32,000 bases of DNA from Candidatus Thorarchaeota archaeon (GCA_048882505.1 JBHLRO010000008.1:90001-122000); one strand, 5' to 3'; shown: positions 6,869 through 22,699, numbered from the stretch's first letter. Notes: generated by a model from the sequence alone, not told the origin. Program-made: numbers and translations.

Positions 6869-8020
6869 TTGGGTGCCCTTGAAAGAAAAATCGAAATTCT
6901 TGGCGAAGCAAGCAAGTTTGATGTCTGTGCATCAATGGCTTCACCAAGAAATGCTTGTAGAAACAACCGAATAGGCAATACGGATAAAATGGGCATTTGT
7001 CATGCTTTCACGCCCGATGGCAGATGTATCAGTCTCTTCAAGGTACTATTGACCAATGAATGCATTTATGATTGTGCATATTGTGTGAATAGCTCCACTG
7101 AGGCAAAAACCAAGGTTATGTTTAAACCTGCCGAATTGGCACGAGCTTTTATGGGATTGTACCTACGAAATTACGTTGAAGGGCTTTTCTTGTCTTCTGG
7201 TATTTGCCGTAACACCACGCACACCACTGAAAAAATGATAGAAGCTCTGAACCTAATTCGTAATAAGTATCTTTTCTACGGATATTTGCACGTCAAAGTT
7301 CTTCCCGGAACAGATAAGGAGTACATCAAGCGGATAATGGAATTAGCTGATCGAGTTAGTCTTAATATCGAGCTCCCAAGCTCATCCCGTCTATCTGAAG
7401 TCTCAAGTATGAAAGATTATCAAAACGACATAATAAGCTGTCAGAAGCACATTTCTAAATTCATTCGCCAGGGATTGGCTCCCGCAGGTCAAACTACTCA
7501 GTTTGTAGTTGGTACGACTGGTGAAACCGATCGTGAAATTATAGAGAGACTCCATTGGGAATATAAAAACCTGGATTTAAAACGTGGTTATTTTTCACAC
7601 TTTACACCAATCAAAGGAACGCCATTAGGTCACAGAGAAATATCCACCAGTCACAGAAAACGGGAGAATTTTCTCTATCGAATAGATTGGTTACTTCGAA
7701 AGTACGACTATAAAGTGGGAGATATTTATTCAATCTTAGACGAAGCAGAAATGATACCATTGACCATCGATCCTAAGGTCTCCCTGGCCGCCACAGATGA
7801 TCTTTTTCCATTAGATGTGAATGAAGCTTCATATGATGAACTTTTACGTGTACCTGGAATTGGAGAAATATCCGCAAGGAGAATCATTAACCTAAGAAAA
7901 GTTAAGAAAGAGATGCACAGCGTTGGAGATTTACAAAGATTAGGAGTCGTAGTAAAAAGAGCAAAACCATTCTTAATCGTTAATGGCTGGCAATACTCAA
8001 AAATCAATGAATTTTGTTGA
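6869..8020 (+). CDS. Putative DNA modification/repair radical SAM protein (TIGR03916/COG4277-like) with C-terminal helix-hairpin-helix
   Basis: GICHAFTPDGRCISLFKVLLTNECIYDCAYC (CxxxCxxC), YVEGLFLSSG, GYLHVK, NIELP, GQTTQFVVG, RENFLYRIDWLLRKY and LDVNEASYDELLRVPGIG. TTG start after a TATATA box. Confidence 0.93.
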   Translation: MGALERKIEILGEASKFDVCASMASPRNACRNNRIGNTDKMGICHAFTPDGRCISLFKVLLTNECIYDCAYCVNSSTEAKTKVMFKPAELARAFMGLYLRNYVEGLFLSSGICRNTTHTTEKMIEALNLIRNKYLFYGYLHVKVLPGTDKEYIKRIMELADRVSLNIELPSSSRLSEVSSMKDYQNDIISCQKHISKFIRQGLAPAGQTTQFVVGTTGETDREIIERLHWEYKNLDLKRGYFSHFTPIKGTPLGHREISTSHRKRENFLYRIDWLLRKYDYKVGDIYSILDEAEMIPLTIDPKVSLAATDDLFPLDVNEASYDELLRVPGIGEISARRIINLRKVKKEMHSVGDLQRLGVVVKRAKPFLIVNGWQYSKINEFC

Positions 8021-13954: not shown

Positions 13955-16528
13955 TTACAGCTCCATTCGGACTCGTCTTACTATTGGAGCTTGACGCAAA
14001 TTTTTTTTGGCTTCCCTAATGACATCGTCAGACCGAAGTAAATTTGTACCTTCATAAATAACGAAACTGTTAGTTTGTATCAGATGATCTAAGGTCTCTC
14101 TCTCCGAATCGTCAAGTGGTCGTCCCGATAGTACTAGATCGAGGTACGTATTGATATCTACTGGTTTCAGATATTTTCCTACATGATCAAGTATTAGCTC
14201 ATGACCCCTCAATGATTCGGGAAAATAAAGCTCATATACTAAGTAATTGGCCAGATTGCGCAAAAATGGAAGCCTTTTTCCCTTTTTTCGTTTGAAAATG
14301 GTCTCCTGAGATAGGAAAATAAGCCAGGTGGCCAAACTGGCAAATTCGACCTGCCAATGTTTTGGATAGATGATGGGTAGTAATTTTGTATAGTATTTGT
14401 GAAGATATACGGTCAATCGCGAAAAATTCAATATATAGCGTTTTAAGATATAATTAAGTAGGTCAGAGTTTAATAAAATTAGCATAGGTAAGAATTGATA
14501 GGAAAGTGGAACTTCTAATACCGAAACATTAGTCCCAGGGATAAATTTTTCAGGTTTATATGCAACTCTAAGCTTGTTACCTATCGCAGTACATATCAGG
14601 CGCGGTTCATTATAATAGGTCAAAAATCGCTTGTTGCGGGGATGAGCTTTTATATACTGAAAGTATTTGGGTTTTAAGCCAAATGGAGCAACGCATCTAC
14701 CAGAATGCAGGTAGGAAATCGTATAATATTCTCTGGAGGGGCCATTTATATGGTCTTTTTTGAATACACGGTGGTCTATTCCATAATCTCCTGAAACAAC
14801 GTTTATTTCACCCCTCTGTACTGTCTTTTGCCAGAGATCGTCGTGATAAATCATGAAGCGATCGTATTTCCTAAACGGTTCGATTTCAATCAGTGGATTT
14901 GCCTTGATATCACTACGTGGATAGATCTGAACCATAGAACTACTCTTGGCGGTATTTCGGAGAAATAACGAGCACATTTCTAGTGTTACATCTTCAAAAG
15001 CTTGAGCTTCGTCTCTTATCTTCCAGATCTGGGTGTGTTCTAAAAGGAACGTTCTAAGTGCTTCAAATTCCTCAACTCGTAATATGGAAAACGGAACTAT
15101 GAAACCTAATAATCCACCTGGTTTTAATAGGGATATTGCTCTTTCGATAAAGGCAGCAGCAGCATTTAGGCTATACTTCTTGGGAGGCCCAGTGCAAGAT
15201 CGAAATAACAATTTACAAAGCTGTTTTTGGAATGAGGAAAGTATCGATCTTCCATACGGGGGATTACCAATGCAAATATCGAACCCTTCATCCGACATTA
15301 TGCGTGGAAATTCATGTTCCCAATGAAAAAGCTTAATATCTGACAGATCTTCCATACGAACTTTGGGCGATTTTCTTTTCAAAAACTCCCAATACATGAC
15401 TTGAATCAAGGATGATAATTCGGTTTTCACCCTGGTTAAGATTTCATTTGTCTGTGGGTCGTGGCTCCATCCAGCTTTTTCCAAAGCAGCGCTTATTTCT
15501 ATCCAATCGATGTGTTCATTTTCGCTATCATCAAGTCCCAGAATACCTGTTCTACCTAATTTGCGCTTCAGAGAGAGTATTGTATTCCTGTAATCTAAGG
15601 GATACCTTAGGGGCTCTTTGCAGGTTCCAAAAAGACTATTTCCATTCTTTAAATTCATCAATATACTTGAAGGAAGGCTATTCAGGGAAATCTCATTTTT
15701 TGAGAGGGCCCAACATATTAAACGGAATTTTGCTACCAAAAGACTGCTTTGGGATAATTCTACTCCAAAAATGCAATTCTGCAGGATCCATGGCGCCAAG
15801 GGCATATTTCTTTTATCCTCTAAGCGCCTGTATAGGGACTCTGCAGCGTAGGCCAAAAAGGAACCAGTTCCACAACCAGGGTCTAATATAGTTATTACAT
15901 CGTCACTCGATCGCGTACCTTCGATGTCTCGCCACTGTTGATCGTTTCGGTACCGATCAAGGCACTCATCTGTGATTTGCCTAATAACAAACCACGGAGT
16001 AAAGTATATACCCTTCTTTTTTCTATTTGGAGAAATAGAGCTCTTTAATGATAGGAATTTATCGTATTCAAAGAGAATCTGTTCATAAAAAAAAGATAGG
16101 AATTCGGGCGTGATTATGCGTTTAGAAGTGATTTTCTGCTGAAAATTCTCCTCTAAAGTCCACCGATAAGAGTAAAGAATAGAAATAAGATCATTCCATT
16201 CTTCTTGAGATAAGGCATCTTTTAATTGCTGTTCATAATGCGAACTAGTTAATAAACTGCCAATGACGTACGGTAAATCTATCTCCTCACGAAATTGAGG
16301 TTGAAACAATATCCTTAGGAGAACATTACGTCCATTTCGGACAGTACTATCGTCAAATAGTTCATTTTCGAAATTAAAAGTCCATTTCCGAAGGAAAAAC
16401 AATCCAAGGATTCGAATTAGTAAATTCAACGATGCTTCATGGATTTCCTGGGATGATAACCCATAGGAAACCCCTCGCTGGAGAAATTGTTTATAAAATG
16501 GCTTTAATTCGTCAAATAAATCCTTCAT
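13955..16528 (-). CDS. N6-adenine DNA methyltransferase, Eco57I/Type IIG-like, with TaqI-like C-terminal target-recognition domain and no recognisable nuclease domain
   Basis: GIYFTP, ILDPGCGTGSFL (motif I), IFGVEL, FHWEHEFP, FDICIGNPPY (motif IV), AAFIERAISLLKPGGLLGFIVP and LNSDLLNY. ATG at 16528 (ORF-track TTG 16540). Confidence 0.9.
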   Translation of the reverse strand: MKDLFDELKPFYKQFLQRGVSYGLSSQEIHEASLNLLIRILGLFFLRKWTFNFENELFDDSTVRNGRNVLLRILFQPQFREEIDLPYVIGSLLTSSHYEQQLKDALSQEEWNDLISILYSYRWTLEENFQQKITSKRIITPEFLSFFYEQILFEYDKFLSLKSSISPNRKKKGIYFTPWFVIRQITDECLDRYRNDQQWRDIEGTRSSDDVITILDPGCGTGSFLAYAAESLYRRLEDKRNMPLAPWILQNCIFGVELSQSSLLVAKFRLICWALSKNEISLNSLPSSILMNLKNGNSLFGTCKEPLRYPLDYRNTILSLKRKLGRTGILGLDDSENEHIDWIEISAALEKAGWSHDPQTNEILTRVKTELSSLIQVMYWEFLKRKSPKVRMEDLSDIKLFHWEHEFPRIMSDEGFDICIGNPPYGRSILSSFQKQLCKLLFRSCTGPPKKYSLNAAAAFIERAISLLKPGGLLGFIVPFSILRVEEFEALRTFLLEHTQIWKIRDEAQAFEDVTLEMCSLFLRNTAKSSSMVQIYPRSDIKANPLIEIEPFRKYDRFMIYHDDLWQKTVQRGEINVVSGDYGIDHRVFKKDHINGPSREYYTISYLHSGRCVAPFGLKPKYFQYIKAHPRNKRFLTYYNEPRLICTAIGNKLRVAYKPEKFIPGTNVSVLEVPLSYQFLPMLILLNSDLLNYILKRYILNFSRLTVYLHKYYTKLLPIIYPKHWQVEFASLATWLIFLSQETIFKRKKGKRLPFLRNLANYLVYELYFPESLRGHELILDHVGKYLKPVDINTYLDLVLSGRPLDDSERETLDHLIQTNSFVIYEGTNLLRSDDVIREAKKNLRQAPIVRRVRMEL

Positions 16529-16555
16529 ACTTAAAAACAACGGGTAATAAACGGT

Positions 16556-16563
16556 TTTATAAA
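16556..16563. promoter_or_regulatory. Palindromic TATA box TTTATAAA in the divergent methyltransferase/CCA intergenic region
   Basis: About 28-35 bp upstream of ATG 16528, typical archaeal spacing for a short-leader transcript. Confidence 0.45.
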
Positions 16564-16646
16564 CTGAATCCTATCATTTTGACCTAAAACTGGGCCATCC
16601 TCGGAAGGTACACAGATTAGGGTATAGTACTGGCTGCTGATTACCA

Positions 16647-18623
16647 TTGGTTGCTTCAATTAATGACCATATAATTCCTCCGGAAATATGGGAAATCTGC
16701 AGACATCTGAACTCACAACAGAAACAAGTATATCTTGTAGGAGGCTCAATTAGGGATCTAATAATAGGAAACATCGTACCAGATGACTGGGATGTCGCTA
16801 CGGATTCCAAACCCTCAGAAACTATTCAAATCTTTAAAGAAAAACTCGGATTTCGTGTTATTCCGACGGGTCTTACTCACGGAACGGTTACTGTTCTTGT
16901 TAACACACGTCCCGTCGAAGTTACAACATTTCGGGTTGAGGAGGGATATAATGATGGAAGGCGTCCTTCGCATGTAGAATTTGTAAGTGATGTCAATCAG
17001 GATTTAGCTAGAAGGGATCTAACCTGTAATGCTATTGCATATGATCCTTTCAAGAAACAGATTCTGGACCCTTATGGAGGGATTGATGATATTAGGGCCC
17101 AGATTCTACGGATGGTTGGAGATCCACATAAAAGATTAGAAGAGGACGGATTACGGGCCCTTAGGATTTTTCGCTTTGTAGCTCAGTTGGGATTTAAAAT
17201 AGAAGCCAATACATTGAAGGCCATTCCACATCACTTCACTACGTTTGTAAAAGTCGCAATAGAACGTATTCAAGCCGAACTTGATCGATTGATGTCAGCA
17301 CCCCACTGGAAACAAGCTTTAATTGCCTTGGAAAAAAGCGGGCTGCTCTATGAAATATGCCCTGACTTTGGGTACAAAGCGATGAAGGAGAAACTAAAGC
17401 CTTCATCACGTGATCGAATTTCTCTTACTTTTGATGTATTACAAACGATACCCTCTGATGCTCCGATTCGGTTAAGATATGCTGTATTGCTGCATCAACT
17501 TTCATCAATTCCCCAAAATACCTCCACAATATTCCCAAAATGTGATAATGAATATATTGCACAACTTTTAAGAAATTTACGTTTTCCCAAAAGGGCCGCG
17601 TCTGAAATCCTCCATCTCCTTAACATACACACAAAATCTTTCTCAGTAGAACTTTCGAGGGGTAAGTCAATCCAAGGATATCAAATGCGAAAATTCCTCT
17701 ATACAATTCGTCCAGAGTACCTCAAGGAATATTTTTGGTTTAAGATGGCCAAGGATATTGGATTTAGAGGGAGTTCGAACATCACAGAAGAGGCTTTTTC
17801 AGAAATTGAGCAGTTAGCAGCTAATAATCCACCAATAGAACTCAGCGATTTGATATTAAATGGTGAGAATGTTACTGAGCACTTGTTTCTCAACAAAAAG
17901 AAAGCTTCAGAACGAGAACTTATTGGACGAATCCTAACCATAATTCGCGAAAGGGTCGAACTACATCCCAAGGACAATACAGTAGAGAATCTTAACGAGA
18001 TCTTATCGAACATACGTCCCATCCTTCTCAGGTGCCAACGAAAGGATCCTCAAATGGTACGGATTGTGGCAACAGACCATATTCGGAAAATATATACCAA
18101 GAACAACCCCACATATCGTCCGTGGGAAAATCGTCACACTTACCTGTTATCGCGCTGGTTGTGCATGTGTTTACTAAGAGAAAATCGTCGATCAATAGTT
18201 ATATTCGACGGAACAAACCTGGATCTGCCTCCTCATTCCAATCATCGGAAATCTCTAGCAAAACGGTTTATAAGATATCGTCCCTTCTTTATCAATCTGA
18301 TAGCAACGAGGGAACAGGCTCAGAAGAATTCATTCCTTAGAAGAGCTGGTAGAGACGTAATTCTTGGTAGTGATGCTGATATGGACGTTTTCGAGCGATT
18401 TAAGGAGCGTATGGAGATGAATCCATCCTGCTTGGCAATTCCGGACCAATGTAATGGAACCACTCTTAATACTCACGATCCTGGATTTCAAGATGAGTTA
18501 GAATCGGTGGTAACTAGTATTCAAGACGCAAAACACAGGATTATCATTCTGGGCGGAAACGTTTTAACAGGAAAAACCTATACCGCTCTCGCAATCAAAA
18601 AAATGCTTGAAGATGATAAGTAG
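16647..18623 (+). CDS. cca: Class II (bacterial-type) CCA tRNA nucleotidyltransferase with degenerate HD region, fused to a C-terminal P-loop kinase-like domain
   Basis: LVGGSIRD, DWD (catalytic DxD), VEVTTFR, DGRRP, DLARRDLTCNAIA and EDGLRALR. LLHQ replaces LLHD. The C-terminal part has TDHIR, IFDGTNL and GGNVLTGKT. Confidence 0.88.
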   Translation: MVASINDHIIPPEIWEICRHLNSQQKQVYLVGGSIRDLIIGNIVPDDWDVATDSKPSETIQIFKEKLGFRVIPTGLTHGTVTVLVNTRPVEVTTFRVEEGYNDGRRPSHVEFVSDVNQDLARRDLTCNAIAYDPFKKQILDPYGGIDDIRAQILRMVGDPHKRLEEDGLRALRIFRFVAQLGFKIEANTLKAIPHHFTTFVKVAIERIQAELDRLMSAPHWKQALIALEKSGLLYEICPDFGYKAMKEKLKPSSRDRISLTFDVLQTIPSDAPIRLRYAVLLHQLSSIPQNTSTIFPKCDNEYIAQLLRNLRFPKRAASEILHLLNIHTKSFSVELSRGKSIQGYQMRKFLYTIRPEYLKEYFWFKMAKDIGFRGSSNITEEAFSEIEQLAANNPPIELSDLILNGENVTEHLFLNKKKASERELIGRILTIIRERVELHPKDNTVENLNEILSNIRPILLRCQRKDPQMVRIVATDHIRKIYTKNNPTYRPWENRHTYLLSRWLCMCLLRENRRSIVIFDGTNLDLPPHSNHRKSLAKRFIRYRPFFINLIATREQAQKNSFLRRAGRDVILGSDADMDVFERFKERMEMNPSCLAIPDQCNGTTLNTHDPGFQDELESVVTSIQDAKHRIIILGGNVLTGKTYTALAIKKMLEDDK

Positions 18624-18657
18624 TTTCGAATTATCCCTATTCCTCTTGGGGGTAAAT

Positions 18658-20367
18658 GTGGTTAGTATTTCAAATCCCAAAAACAAGAAAGCCATGGGGC
18701 AGTACTTCACACCTGTCCCAATTGTCAAATGCCTTGTAAACATTCTCATAGATCTTATTCCTAGGGAAAAGATGCAGGGATTGAACGTTCTAGATCCTGC
18801 GGTCGGAGAAGGCATATTCTTAGAAATCCTGAAGGAAGAATTAAATTCAAGATTTCTAGCAAACAAACAGAACATTCACCAGATCCTAGGTATTGATATA
18901 GATCGCAAATCAATCCTTAAAGCTTTAGAGAGGGAGAATGAACAAAAATCGGTTCGAAACCTTGAGATCAAATATCTCGTGGGAGACTTCTTCCAGTTAT
19001 ACGACCAACGAAAACACGAATGGGATTTTGACATAGTTCTTGGCAACCCCCCACACGCAGCCCGTTATTCTCGCTCCCAATGGGAATATATTCGGTCTCT
19101 TATCCCCAGTGGTATGAACAAACGTTTTCCAAAGGAATCAGCAATATTTTTCACCATATTGGCCTTGGATTCATTAAAAGATAGTGGAATCCTTGGCTTT
19201 GTCTTACCCAAACCTCTTTTATACTCACAAAGATGGTATACATTAAGGAGACTGATATTAACAGAATACAAAGTCAACTACGTGATTGATTTTGGCAATC
19301 AATTCGCCTCACAAAATCAAGAACACATTGGAATAATAATAAGTAAAACAAAGCCTGACTCAAGTTATCAAACAGGTTTATACAACAAAAAAACAAATTT
19401 CTTAACGACCTTATCGGATATACCTGTTCAAGACGCCTTACTTACTGATAATTTTCTTGTTGATGTATCAACGAAAGAAAGAGCCTTAATTCGTAAGTTA
19501 CTTAGCCCCAAATATCGATCTCTGGATGTTGAAGCTTATAGAGGTATCAGCAGCAGGTTTCGTGTACAATCTTATGGATTGCCACTTATTGAAAAAAAAA
19601 CCATGGGGAGGGGATTTCTTTTTCCTTCAAGCAGTTTCGTTTCAAGTGAAACCCCTCCAAAGGTATTGATAAAATATCTACACCCAAAAATAATCCTCCA
19701 ACGTATAATTCCTTATAAAACTAATCCGTATAGTTTTATCATCTACCCTTGGGTTGATGTTGATGGAAACATCATACCACATGAAACAACTGTCATATTA
19801 AAGAATCCTAAGCCAAAATATCCTCTAAAAGTTCTTGCTGCAATCCTTCAGTCATCACTAACTGAATGGTGGTTGCGCCACGTTGTATTTACCAAACAGT
19901 TTGTCACTAGTAAAGATTTTGACAGAGCTTACATTGAAAAAGTCCGAGTTCCGCTTGTTCCAAACGAAGGATATGTGTCTCATCCAGGTTCACTGGAACT
20001 AAGCCTAGATTTACTGAACTACCAGGTTTTACTAGATCTTGCCAATCAGGAAGATTCGTTACATGAAATCTCTCTGCTTGGAGAACTCTATGATCATTTC
20101 ATCATTTGCGGAGTTAAAATCAAATCAATCATACAAGAAAATTTAAGAGCTCTTCCTATTCATCAGAAAAACAGTAAATATTTTCAGGAATTCCATAATA
20201 TCTATCGAAGGATAACGAGAGGTCACAGCCATACGTCTGATATGTATAAAAGGATACAAGGCCTATTGGGGAACCAGAACTTAATCCAAAGATGCATCAA
20301 TGAGCTTACATTTCGTTTATATCATTTAACAAGTGAAGAATCCGCTTTAATAAAGAAGAATTTCTAA
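18658..20367 (+). CDS. N6-adenine DNA methyltransferase, M.TaqI-like gamma class, with NPPH catalytic variant
   Basis: GQYFTP, VLDPAVGEGIFL, ILGIDID, YLVGDFF, FDIVLGNPPH and LKDSGILGFVLP, plus a TaqI_C-like tail (KIILQRI ... LAAILQSSL.EWW ... IEKVRVP). Likely GTG start at 18658 after GGGGGT; the ORF is open from 18607. Confidence 0.88.
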   Translation: MVSISNPKNKKAMGQYFTPVPIVKCLVNILIDLIPREKMQGLNVLDPAVGEGIFLEILKEELNSRFLANKQNIHQILGIDIDRKSILKALERENEQKSVRNLEIKYLVGDFFQLYDQRKHEWDFDIVLGNPPHAARYSRSQWEYIRSLIPSGMNKRFPKESAIFFTILALDSLKDSGILGFVLPKPLLYSQRWYTLRRLILTEYKVNYVIDFGNQFASQNQEHIGIIISKTKPDSSYQTGLYNKKTNFLTTLSDIPVQDALLTDNFLVDVSTKERALIRKLLSPKYRSLDVEAYRGISSRFRVQSYGLPLIEKKTMGRGFLFPSSSFVSSETPPKVLIKYLHPKIILQRIIPYKTNPYSFIIYPWVDVDGNIIPHETTVILKNPKPKYPLKVLAAILQSSLTEWWLRHVVFTKQFVTSKDFDRAYIEKVRVPLVPNEGYVSHPGSLELSLDLLNYQVLLDLANQEDSLHEISLLGELYDHFIICGVKIKSIIQENLRALPIHQKNSKYFQEFHNIYRRITRGHSHTSDMYKRIQGLLGNQNLIQRCINELTFRLYHLTSEESALIKKNF

Positions 20368-21370: not shown

Positions 21371-22699
21371 CTATTTTCGATTTTTTATCCAGGACAGTCC
21401 GAGAAGAGTAGCAATCACAAAGAAAAAAATCAAACCGATCGCATTAATTCCATCGAGTTTTGGATTTATAACGATTTTAACGAGCCACATGTCTCTGTTA
21501 GTATCACCAAATGAACTAGTAAGACCCGCTAGGACATAACCGTTATCTGGCGCTTGAACGAGTGCACTGGCCCAGTCAGGAGCTAATCCCCCAAAAGCCT
21601 GGCTAAATTGCTCCATGCAATTCCTATCGGTCTTCAATAACCATAAATCCCCACTGCCGACCCCAAATGACGCAGTAAGGCCAGCCAGAGCAAAACCATC
21701 ATCATCATCCTGCACGATAGAAGTCGCCCAATCGGATCCTGTTCCGCCATAAGTCTGGCTACATTGCATAATCCCATTCGCATCAGTCCTTACTAGCCAC
21801 ATGTCGCCGCCGCCGACCCCAAATGACCCTGAAATACCCGTTAGTGCAAAGCCTCCCTCTCTAGTCTGGATTAAGGCATGCGCTTCATCCGCACCATCTC
21901 CTCCGTAACTCTTATTCCATTGAGCAACTCCGTTTTCGTCGGTTTTCACCAACCACATATCACTCCCTCTATCAAATGAAACGTTATACCCCGCGATCGC
22001 AAAGCTGCCATCATTGGTCTGGATTATGGCTTTAGCCCAATCATTGGAGTTAATATTATTGTATTGCTTTCCTCCGAAAGTCTGGATCCATTCTTCATTT
22101 CCGTCTTTATCGGTTTTTACCAAAAACATATCAAAATCGCCCGCGCCATATGAGGTGGTGTATCCCGCTATAGCAAACCCGCCATCCAAGGTTTGGATCA
22201 GGGAGGAAGCCCCCTCAGCACCCCATCTTCCATAGGTTTGATCCCACTGAAGTACTCCATCAGAATCAGTCTTCACTAGCCACACGTCTCCCCCACCAAC
22301 CCCAAATGACCGGGTTAGGCCCGCTAGTGCAAAACCTCCGTCATCTGTCTGGACGAGTGCACTCGCCCAATCAGAATCGAATCCGCCATAAGTCCGACTC
22401 CATTCCTCGACACCATTCGCATCGGTCTTAACCAACCACATTTCACTTCCATACGCACCTAATGACCCCGTGGAACCTGCAAGGGCAAAACCTCCATCTG
22501 TTGTCGAAACGAGGTCAGGAGCTTCATCCCCGCTGGTTCCTCCATAGGTCCGATGCCATTGCACCATCGATTCGTTTTGGGTGCCTTCACCTACGGCAAT
22601 TAGTTCATTGGGATTCTGGGATTCAAACAACAGGCCCATCATGAATGGAATGGCTATTAATAAAAAAAGAGTATATCTAGAGAGTTTCGTGATTGTCAC
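21371..22699 (-). CDS. Secreted, C-terminally anchored protein with seven ~52-aa repeats (7-bladed beta-propeller)
   Basis: N-terminal hydrophobic signal; seven copies of W..TYGG...D.A..L.QT.DGGFALAG.T.SFG.G..DMWLVKTD..G; C-terminal transmembrane helix followed by KNRK. Confidence 0.85.
   Translation of the reverse strand: MTITKLSRYTLFLLIAIPFMMGLLFESQNPNELIAVGEGTQNESMVQWHRTYGGTSGDEAPDLVSTTDGGFALAGSTGSLGAYGSEMWLVKTDANGVEEWSRTYGGFDSDWASALVQTDDGGFALAGLTRSFGVGGGDVWLVKTDSDGVLQWDQTYGRWGAEGASSLIQTLDGGFAIAGYTTSYGAGDFDMFLVKTDKDGNEEWIQTFGGKQYNNINSNDWAKAIIQTNDGSFAIAGYNVSFDRGSDMWLVKTDENGVAQWNKSYGGDGADEAHALIQTREGGFALTGISGSFGVGGGDMWLVRTDANGIMQCSQTYGGTGSDWATSIVQDDDDGFALAGLTASFGVGSGDLWLLKTDRNCMEQFSQAFGGLAPDWASALVQAPDNGYVLAGLTSSFGDTNRDMWLVKIVINPKLDGINAIGLIFFFVIATLLGLSWIKNRK

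Follow-up and report, generated by a model that had tools for sequence, protein, structure and literature searches.

Two predicted adenine methyltransferases bracket a CCA nucleotidyltransferase-kinase fusion in a conserved three-gene cluster of Asgard archaea

DNA methylases that act without a partner nuclease (orphan methylases) can be embedded among genes of other functions; the Escherichia coli dam gene, for instance, shares a conserved operon (aroK-aroB-damX-dam-rpe-gph-trpS) with housekeeping genes to which it is unrelated. Other methylases are parts of restriction-modification (R-M) or bacteriophage exclusion (BREX) systems, and these usually vary most in their specificity domain. Methylation has also been connected to tRNA, as in the conflict between PrrC-EcoprrI and T4 Pnk/Rnl, which couples R-M to tRNA. 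Here we describe a three-gene locus from Candidatus Thorarchaeota archaeon (GCA_048882505.1, JBHLRO010000008.1:90001-122000), a member of the Asgard archaea, which are the archaeal group closest to eukaryotes. The window, by which we mean the whole stretch of DNA that was analysed, has a length of 32,000 nucleotides. It contains two genes for predicted adenine methyltransferases, MT1 and MT2, on either side of cca, which encodes a CCA-type nucleotidyltransferase fused to a kinase domain. In the reading that we favour, and to which we give about an even chance, MT1 and MT2 are orphan DNA adenine methylases specific to one clade, whose genes share a promoter region and an operon with that of a tRNA-end enzyme, and the three genes are linked by regulation or by history. 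The locus has the following features.

13955-16528, minus strand: MT1, intact gene of an 857-aa gamma-class N6-adenine-type methyltransferase
16529-16646: 118-bp divergent spacer between MT1 and cca; contains the palindromic, TATA-like box TTTATAAA (16556-16563)
16647-18623, plus strand: cca, intact gene of a 658-aa class II CCA-type nucleotidyltransferase with a predicted permuted kinase
18658-20367, plus strand: MT2, intact gene of a 569-aa gamma-class amino-methyltransferase

An earlier reading by a model that had seen the sequence alone (the sequence-only reading) reported two adenine methylases bracketing a CCA-kinase fusion. We found all three open reading frames (ORFs) intact and confirmed their domain identities. 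MT1 had been placed divergent from cca across about 120 bp, which agrees with the spacer of 118 bp and its TTTATAAA box, 28 nt upstream of the MT1 ATG. The longest ORF of MT1 (13955-16540, minus strand) starts with TTG and has 861 aa; the true start is probably the ATG at 16528, four codons inside this ORF, because 14 of 14 orthologues begin there. The ORF of MT2 runs from a TTG at 18607 and overlaps the cca stop codon (18621-18623). Here too the orthologue alignment backs the earlier proposal, as it favours the GTG at 18658, 34 nt past the cca stop.

When comparing the locus to described systems, we find the closest resemblance to CamA of Clostridioides difficile and to Dam. Like these, MT1 and MT2 have no partner nuclease, a fixed locus throughout the clade and a conserved specificity domain. 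CamA is also among the best fold matches of MT1, and MT2 is predicted to be co-transcribed with an unrelated housekeeping gene, as is Dam with its neighbours. Unlike CamA and Dam, two and sometimes three different gamma-class methylases surround one gene here, and they belong to an unusually large set of ~26 genes in one archaeal genome. With the BREX methylase PglX/BrxX (PDB 9ewz, 8c45), MT1 shares the helical N-terminal, gamma-class methylase, TaqI-like specificity and C-terminal helical domains, and BrxX/PglX is its best fold match (Foldseek, 2e-13, ~820 aligned columns). However, MT1 has 857 aa compared to ~1,200 aa in PglX/BrxX and scores 59 bits against the PglX-type model NF033452 (cut-off 500), and no BrxA/B/C, PglZ or BrxL was found among the neighbours in the window or the orthologous loci.

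As in Type IIS R-M systems with two methylases, two different adenine-type methylases lie close together; unlike in such systems, the locus has no endonuclease, an unrelated 2-kb gene separates the methylases, transmission is vertical and the methylases have conserved specificity domains. Pnkp-Hen1 and Pnk/Rnl of T4, which acts against PrrC-EcoprrI, are precedents for tying tRNA repair to methylation or R-M. In both, as here, a polynucleotide kinase (PNK)-fold domain is linked to an RNA-end enzyme and methyltransferase genes, and Pnkp kinase domains are among the fold matches of the cca kinase (Z 7.2-8.2). Hen1, however, is a 2'-O-methyltransferase whereas MT1 and MT2 are gamma-class amino-methyltransferases, and the cluster differs from Pnkp-Hen1 in having no ligase or phosphatase and a kinase that appears circularly permuted and fused to a CCA enzyme. 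Lastly, the class II CCA enzymes of Hodarchaeales, as presented in a preprint (10.64898/2026.05.29.728689), come from the same clade and show the same replacement of class I by two class II copies. Orphan methylases and the Hodarchaeales class II CCA enzymes are known kinds, and we found no description of the fixed trio or of the permuted-kinase fusion.

The trio is a real, stable unit. We surveyed the kinase domain in 22 species genomes of one GTDB genus of the Hodarchaeales and in 378 other Asgard genomes. It was present in 17 of the 22 and in none of the 378, bar one borderline match (E 8e-4) in a frame with five stop codons. Among 185,579 prokaryotic species, the domain was found solely in metagenome-assembled genomes of Hodarchaeota/Heimdallarchaeota, and among 1.84 billion protein representatives strong scores came solely from members of the same family or from fragments. 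We fetched 15 trio loci, of which 13 have enough sequence on both sides and two lie on contigs that end just past cca. The order MT1 (divergent)-cca-MT2 was observed in all 13, and the same trio occurs on at least five further metagenomic contigs that were found from the fusion or from MT2. Full-length MT1 orthologues are present in the same genomes only, other Asgard genomes having relatives of the C-terminal half only, and MT2 orthologues are restricted to the same clade. The sequence-only reading had named homologues of the fusion that mostly lack the methylases as evidence against its proposal. Neither a fusion without both methylases nor an MT2 orthologue without the fusion was found in the 13 loci and the further contigs. 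That reading had also considered chance adjacency; for this one genome it is excluded by the conservation across species, because the fusion and MT2 never occur apart in related loci.

The trio proteins diverge in parallel. Identity to the window amounts to 40-47% for the CCA fusion, 37-50% for MT1 and 31-39% for MT2, compared to 57-69% for three flanking proteins, namely a pyridoxal phosphate (PLP) enzyme (PALP), a phosphoglucomutase (PGM) and an F420-type oxidoreductase; in one close relative, the trio proteins are 82-85% identical. The flanks themselves vary. The PALP gene is next to MT1 in ~9 of 13 loci and the F420-oxidoreductase gene lies downstream in ~7 of 14, and some lineages carry CheB genes or an inverted PALP gene beside MT1 and other genes downstream. 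None of the five genus members without the trio has a PALP orthologue, and four of them also lack the F420 gene. In one of the five (G057), the contig with the PGM and F420 genes breaks off at precisely the point where the trio would be expected to start.

The spacing within the cluster is operon-like. The gap between cca and MT2 ranges from -23 to +80 nt across 12 species, and MT2 is probably co-transcribed with cca. The orthologous MT1-cca spacers have a length of 94-192 nt. In the main clade, they share the conserved block AATTAG-N9-CTAATT, in which the 6-nt arms form a perfect inverted repeat, with a TATA-like GTTAAAAACTTT behind it (L028-L036; e.g. L033:10802-10954). We consider these elements a candidate operator and a candidate TATA box of a divergent promoter. 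The window and its closest relative carry TTTATAAA in place of this block with GTTAAAAACTTT.

Both methylases have the hallmarks of orphan enzymes: S-adenosylmethionine-binding and catalytic motifs are intact in the absence of a partner nuclease, at a locus that is syntenic throughout the clade. MT1 matches Eco57I (3.3e-26), N6_Mtase and TaqI_C in Pfam, and none of its motifs X (KGIYFTPW), I (LDPGCGTGSF) and IV (GNPPYGR) varies across an alignment of 15 orthologues. A helical N-terminal domain (~residues 1-160) lies ahead of the methylase core; behind the core come the TaqI_C-type specificity domain and, at the C-terminus, another helical domain. Since Type IIG/IIL-like enzymes such as Eco57I, MmeI and DrdV carry an N-terminal PD-(D/E)xK nuclease, we considered whether MT1 could hide one. 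In an AlphaFold model built with the 15 orthologues as input (pLDDT, the predicted local distance difference test, 71.6), the first 160 residues form helices only (pLDDT ~90) and no beta-sheet, no D...ExK pattern occurs among the invariant residues of the alignment, and the isolated N-terminus has no significant Pfam match. Because the N-terminal 160 residues are modelled as all-helical, MT1 is not a Type IIG enzyme with a hidden nuclease. Besides BrxX and CamA, its fold matches include BsaXI, Type I M subunits, DrdV and LlaGI; the 50 top structural neighbours are all DNA methylases or subunits of R-M or BREX systems, except for one uncharacterised putative S-adenosylmethionine methyltransferase.

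MT2 matches N6_Mtase (4.5e-18) and Eco57I in Pfam. It begins straight at motif X, which leaves no room for an N-terminal nuclease domain. Motifs X (GQYFTP) and I (LDPAVGEGIF) are invariant in an alignment of 13 orthologues, and motif IV (GNPPH) reads NPPH in 12 of these and NPPY in one. NPPH is also known in the Thermus orthologue of Trm14, a tRNA m2G6 methyltransferase, and motif IV is not predictive of the substrate (PMC3177210). As the motif is conserved and present in this orthologue, we rejected a dead MT2 active site; NPPH is neither the mark of an inactive enzyme nor evidence for an RNA substrate. The best solved relative of MT2 is M.BseCI, others being Type I M subunits and CamA. The protein combines a conserved specificity domain with a variable C-terminal helical tail, and the isolated C-terminus has no significant match in Pfam.

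The specificity domains of both methylases are as conserved as their catalytic cores, with mean pairwise identities of 0.67 vs 0.68 for MT1 and 0.52 vs 0.52 for MT2. The regions that vary most are the helical ends and an insert.

In several species, MT2 is directly followed by a third TaqI_C-type methylase of ~550 aa, which overlaps the MT2 stop by ~11 nt. It was found at these loci:

L037:11389-12861: third methylase, directly after MT2
L038:2944-4386: third methylase, directly after MT2
L065:8739-10388: third methylase, directly after MT2
L067:8739-10388: third methylase, directly after MT2

The window's genome has no such gene at this position; C8:126074-128413, ~16 kb further downstream, holds the nearest relative (33% identity).

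We compared the trio to the other methylases of the genome. The window's genome (4.3 Mb, ~3,600 ORFs) yields 29 matches to the Eco57I family. These come from 26 ORFs for gamma-class methylases with lengths of 580-1021 aa, a very high number, for instance at these loci:

C1:352020-356427: methylase locus
C4:177018-195389: methylase locus
C8:80218-82557: methylase locus just outside the window
C8:126074-128413: methylase locus just outside the window

A first look at genus relatives gave similar counts of candidate methylases. Those methylases that we examined lack a nuclease and are conserved between species, suggesting that they form a large set of domesticated orphan methylases. In another Asgard family, relatives of the MT1 family are single nuclease-less genes amid housekeeping genes, and in three of four loci they are divergent from an M28 peptidase gene. 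A second gene enclosed by two methylases was found in the window's genome itself, with the same orientation pattern as the CCA trio (G000:C32:3248-9454; L094):

from 3248, minus strand: 1021-aa methylase
6925-7365, plus strand: histone doublet, 146 aa
7517-9454, plus strand: 645-aa methylase

The 645-aa methylase lies directly downstream of the histone doublet in all five other genus species whose contig reaches that far, including one without the CCA trio; on a sixth contig, the sequence stops shortly behind this methylase. None of the other species examined has the 1021-aa methylase, which is a recent addition. We therefore rejected the idea that this arrangement is an ancient duplicated architecture, as the C32 pair are also not clear paralogues of MT1 and MT2. 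Orphan methylases that are stably located beside unrelated housekeeping genes are thus a general feature of the clade, which makes conserved adjacency weaker evidence for a biochemical system.

The protein encoded by cca can be divided into three parts:

residues 1-250: head and neck of a class II CCA-type nucleotidyltransferase
residues ~250-450: body and tail
residues ~451-658: predicted circularly permuted P-loop kinase domain of the AAA_33/PNK/PSTK-like type

The nucleotidyltransferase part matches PolyA_pol (7.4e-34) and PolyA_pol_RNAbd in Pfam and CCA enzymes in the PDB (2.7e-47). Its score of 246 bits against NF009814, a Firmicutes-type CCA model, is under the cut-off of 290 because the match covers the N-terminal 250 residues only. 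The class II CCA motifs GGSIRD, DWD, RRD and EDGLR are invariant in 16 orthologues, as is the DGRRP flexible-loop element apart from the final Arg (15 of 16).

In the window's genome, which is 94.5% complete, we found no class I CCA enzyme and just two class II paralogues. One is the fusion and the other a protein of 385 aa, and all 17 genomes have retained the pair.

G000:C1:181494-182651 (L007:1396-2553): second class II CCA paralogue, 385 aa, 32% identity to the nucleotidyltransferase of the fusion

The fusion is the more canonical copy, with 246 vs 165 bits on the CCA model and the usual DGRRP element. Because it is the more canonical of the only two CCA enzymes in the genome, this suggests a housekeeping role of its nucleotidyltransferase. 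The flexible loop of the second paralogue is divergent, reading REHFPAPGKPP in contrast to the canonical EGYNDGRRPS of the fusion, and a division of labour into CC-adding and A-adding is possible. In agreement with this, the preprint independently reports that Hodarchaeales replaced the class I by a class II CCA enzyme, often present as A and B paralogues, and that a class II enzyme of Hodarchaeum, the paralogue being unspecified, adds the full CCA in vitro (10.64898/2026.05.29.728689). It contains zero mentions of a kinase, a fusion or a methylase. Class I enzymes occur close by: the trio-less genus member G057 has a full archaeal class I CCA enzyme (C101:1133-2332, 361 bits; contamination of this genome is 7%), and G078, from a sister family, has a partial one (C122:14422-15249). 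This would place the switch from class I to class II within or just below the genus-level group.

The last ~200 residues of the fusion match no Pfam family. In the model of this domain (pLDDT 82), the strand-Walker A-helix element, which is canonically N-terminal in the AAA_33/PNK/PSTK fold, sits at the extreme C-terminus. The Walker A motif (GGNVLTGKT) lies just 15 residues from the end of the protein; its GNVLTGKT/S form, at residues 637-644 of 658 and behind the rest of the core, is kept in 16 of 16 orthologues. We thus rejected the possibility that the permuted kinase is a frameshift artefact. The glycines and the lysine of GNVLxGK are invariant in the 16 orthologues, and D477, R480, D521, R565 and SDAD are invariant or almost so.

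A Foldseek search with the model returned nothing at E<=0.001. This is expected because the fold is permuted, and the non-sequential aligner VIA-align alone found kinases. Its matches are archaeal PSTK (Z 9.2, root-mean-square deviation 2.9, 135 residues), Kti12 (8.7), a putative Chloroflexus kinase (8.6), 6-phosphofructo-2-kinase (8.3), the Clostridium Pnkp kinase (8.2), T4 Pnk (7.8) and the Trl1 kinase (7.2), and each starts after the target's own P-loop. A profile of the 16 orthologues agrees, with residues 21-179 aligned to residues 54-196 of an ordinary AAA_33 kinase (hhalign, probability 97.6%, E 2.7e-12). By these models, the C-terminal domain is a genuine, circularly permuted AAA_33/PNK-type kinase and a non-canonical member of its family. 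The Z values of tRNA-acting and other kinases are tied within ~1. The domain probably acts on the end of an RNA or tRNA, its putative substrate, by phosphorylating or gripping it. Ligase and phosphatase domains were found neither in the fusion nor in its neighbours (Pfam). A complex prediction for MT2 and the kinase domain scored 0.00, below the mark, and weighs neither way on contact.

In the favoured reading, the trio would be a vertically inherited, clade-specific three-gene cluster and not a defence system. MT1 and MT2 would be domesticated orphan DNA adenine methyltransferases with a fixed sequence specificity that, as part of the ~26-gene set, probably mark the cell's own chromosome; DNA is the substrate that we infer for both. 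The product of the middle gene, belonging to the pair of class II CCA enzymes which took the place of the archaeal class I enzyme in this clade, would add or repair tRNA 3'-CCA ends. MT1 and cca may share a bidirectional promoter region, MT2 (with the third methylase in some species) would lie downstream of cca on a common transcript, and the genes would be linked by regulation or history and not by a shared biochemical pathway. If this is true, a large, vertically inherited set of nuclease-less adenine methylases would be wired into housekeeping operons, including those for tRNA maturation and histones, and this would point to chromosomal epigenetic marking rather than defence. The locus would also be a cautionary case, in that strict neighbourhood conservation is insufficient for calling a defence system. 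The combination of a class II CCA enzyme with a circularly permuted polynucleotide-kinase-like domain is not described in the preprint, the one paper that we found on these enzymes (10.64898/2026.05.29.728689).

Several observations weigh against this reading. The trio survives rearrangements at both flanking junctions and has outlasted both flanks, which speaks for some selective constraint on the linkage itself. The three families occur over one and the same narrow range and have diverged alongside each other, as would be expected of the components of a single system. A gene enclosed by two methylases is unlikely by chance, since 26 methylases among ~3,600 ORFs would enclose just ~0.19 genes per genome. 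The five trio-less genus members are divergent and offer no clean empty site. Finally, the DNA substrate is predicted by homology, and a fixed RNA substrate would agree equally well with the strong conservation of the specificity domains.

An alternative that we regard as unlikely, and that the sequence-only reading had also named, is an operon for RNA repair and modification in which the CCA-kinase heals tRNA ends and MT1 and MT2, after recruitment to this task, methylate an exocyclic amine of tRNA or another RNA. It would loosely resemble Pnkp-Hen1, in which a protective methyl mark goes along with the repair. The strict three-way co-occurrence and the operon structure fit such an operon, as does the strong purifying selection on the specificity domains, which is expected for a fixed macromolecular substrate. 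The nearest folds of the kinase act on tRNA or RNA (PSTK, Kti12, Pnkp, Trl1), both methylases have weak Pfam matches to UPF0020, a family of RNA m2G methylases, and MT2 shares NPPH with the Thermus Trm14 orthologue; however, motif IV does not predict the substrate (PMC3177210). Furthermore, the structural neighbours of MT1 are, bar one of the top 50, DNA methylases or R-M/BREX subunits, and the best relatives of MT2 are M.BseCI, Type I M subunits and CamA. Both proteins carry TaqI_C-type specificity domains for duplex DNA, no THUMP, PUA or other RNA-binding module was found in them (Pfam), and the cluster has no ligase or phosphatase.

Rather unlikely, in our view, is a single functional unit of an undescribed kind, in which the CCA-kinase works with PglX/TaqI-type methylases. 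These would either have been retargeted to tRNA or other RNA, adding a protective amino-methyl mark to the repair, or form a nuclease-free self-marking immune or stress module with tRNA-end chemistry as its output. Were such a minority reading true, methylation and tRNA-end repair would be linked in a novel manner.

The sequence-only reading had proposed a methylation-linked module of defence or counter-defence with an effector that acts on tRNA ends. In a nuclease-free version of this idea, the methylases would mark self DNA, as happens in BREX, and the CCA-kinase would be the effector or would repair tRNAs cut by anticodon nucleases of a virus or the host. We consider this improbable. In its favour are the structural match of MT1 to BrxX/PglX over ~820 columns, partial matches to PglX, MAD2 and DrmMI models, the somewhat faster evolution of the trio compared to the housekeeping flanks, and a third methylase that comes and goes downstream. 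However, no BREX, DISARM or MADS partners, nuclease, helicase or integrase were found in or around the cluster, and PADLOC and NCBIfam gave partial, sub-threshold matches to generic methylase models only. The cluster is passed on vertically and, rather than being patchy, occupies a fixed locus in all species examined, the specificity domains are conserved and not diversifying, and the nucleotidyltransferase is the more canonical of the two CCA enzymes. Among the viral contigs of IMG/VR, the kinase domain has no relatives and MT2 nothing beyond a 24% relative; on these grounds we also rejected a viral origin. The other orphan methylases that are equally fixed beside housekeeping genes weaken the proposal further. 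To our knowledge, MenT toxins, to which the nucleotidyltransferase had been likened, are not class II CCA-type enzymes, so that the analogy is functional only.

Lastly, we consider it very improbable that the two methylases serve a Type IIS-like endonuclease encoded elsewhere, each shielding one strand of its asymmetric site, with cca simply located between them: MT1 and MT2 co-occur strictly, both partially match the Alw26I/Eco31I/Esp3I adenine methylase model and two ~1,000-aa methylase fusions in the genome could be Type IIG-like, but the scores of 48 and 58 bits are far under the cut-off of 353, R-M genes are usually adjacent whereas no endonuclease lies in the window or any orthologous locus, the clade-wide stability and conserved specificity domains are atypical of R-M, and it would remain unexplained why cca was never lost between the methylases.

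The surroundings of the trio agree with what the sequence-only reading had stated, namely metabolic flanks without a nuclease or helicase nearby. By Pfam, the flanking ORFs encode the PLP enzyme, a PduO-type adenosyltransferase, a PrpB-like enzyme, the F420-type oxidoreductase, a 442-aa protein and PGM. No nuclease, helicase or integrase was found among the window neighbours, all ORFs within ~4 kb having a non-nuclease assignment or none, and no nuclease families were found in the orthologous loci either (no systematic genome-wide search for unlinked endonucleases was made). Scans of the region with Rfam and for tRNAs gave no matches, and a promoter and terminator scan remained at background, with models of the bacterial type that are ill-suited to archaea. 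The TTTATAAA 8-mer has five copies in the window compared to 2.0 expected. The 442-aa ORF (21371-22699, minus strand) is missing at most other trio loci and is thus placed outside the cluster; it has no Pfam family, shows a weak match to SBBP beta-propeller lipoprotein repeats and is 59% identical in the closest relative.

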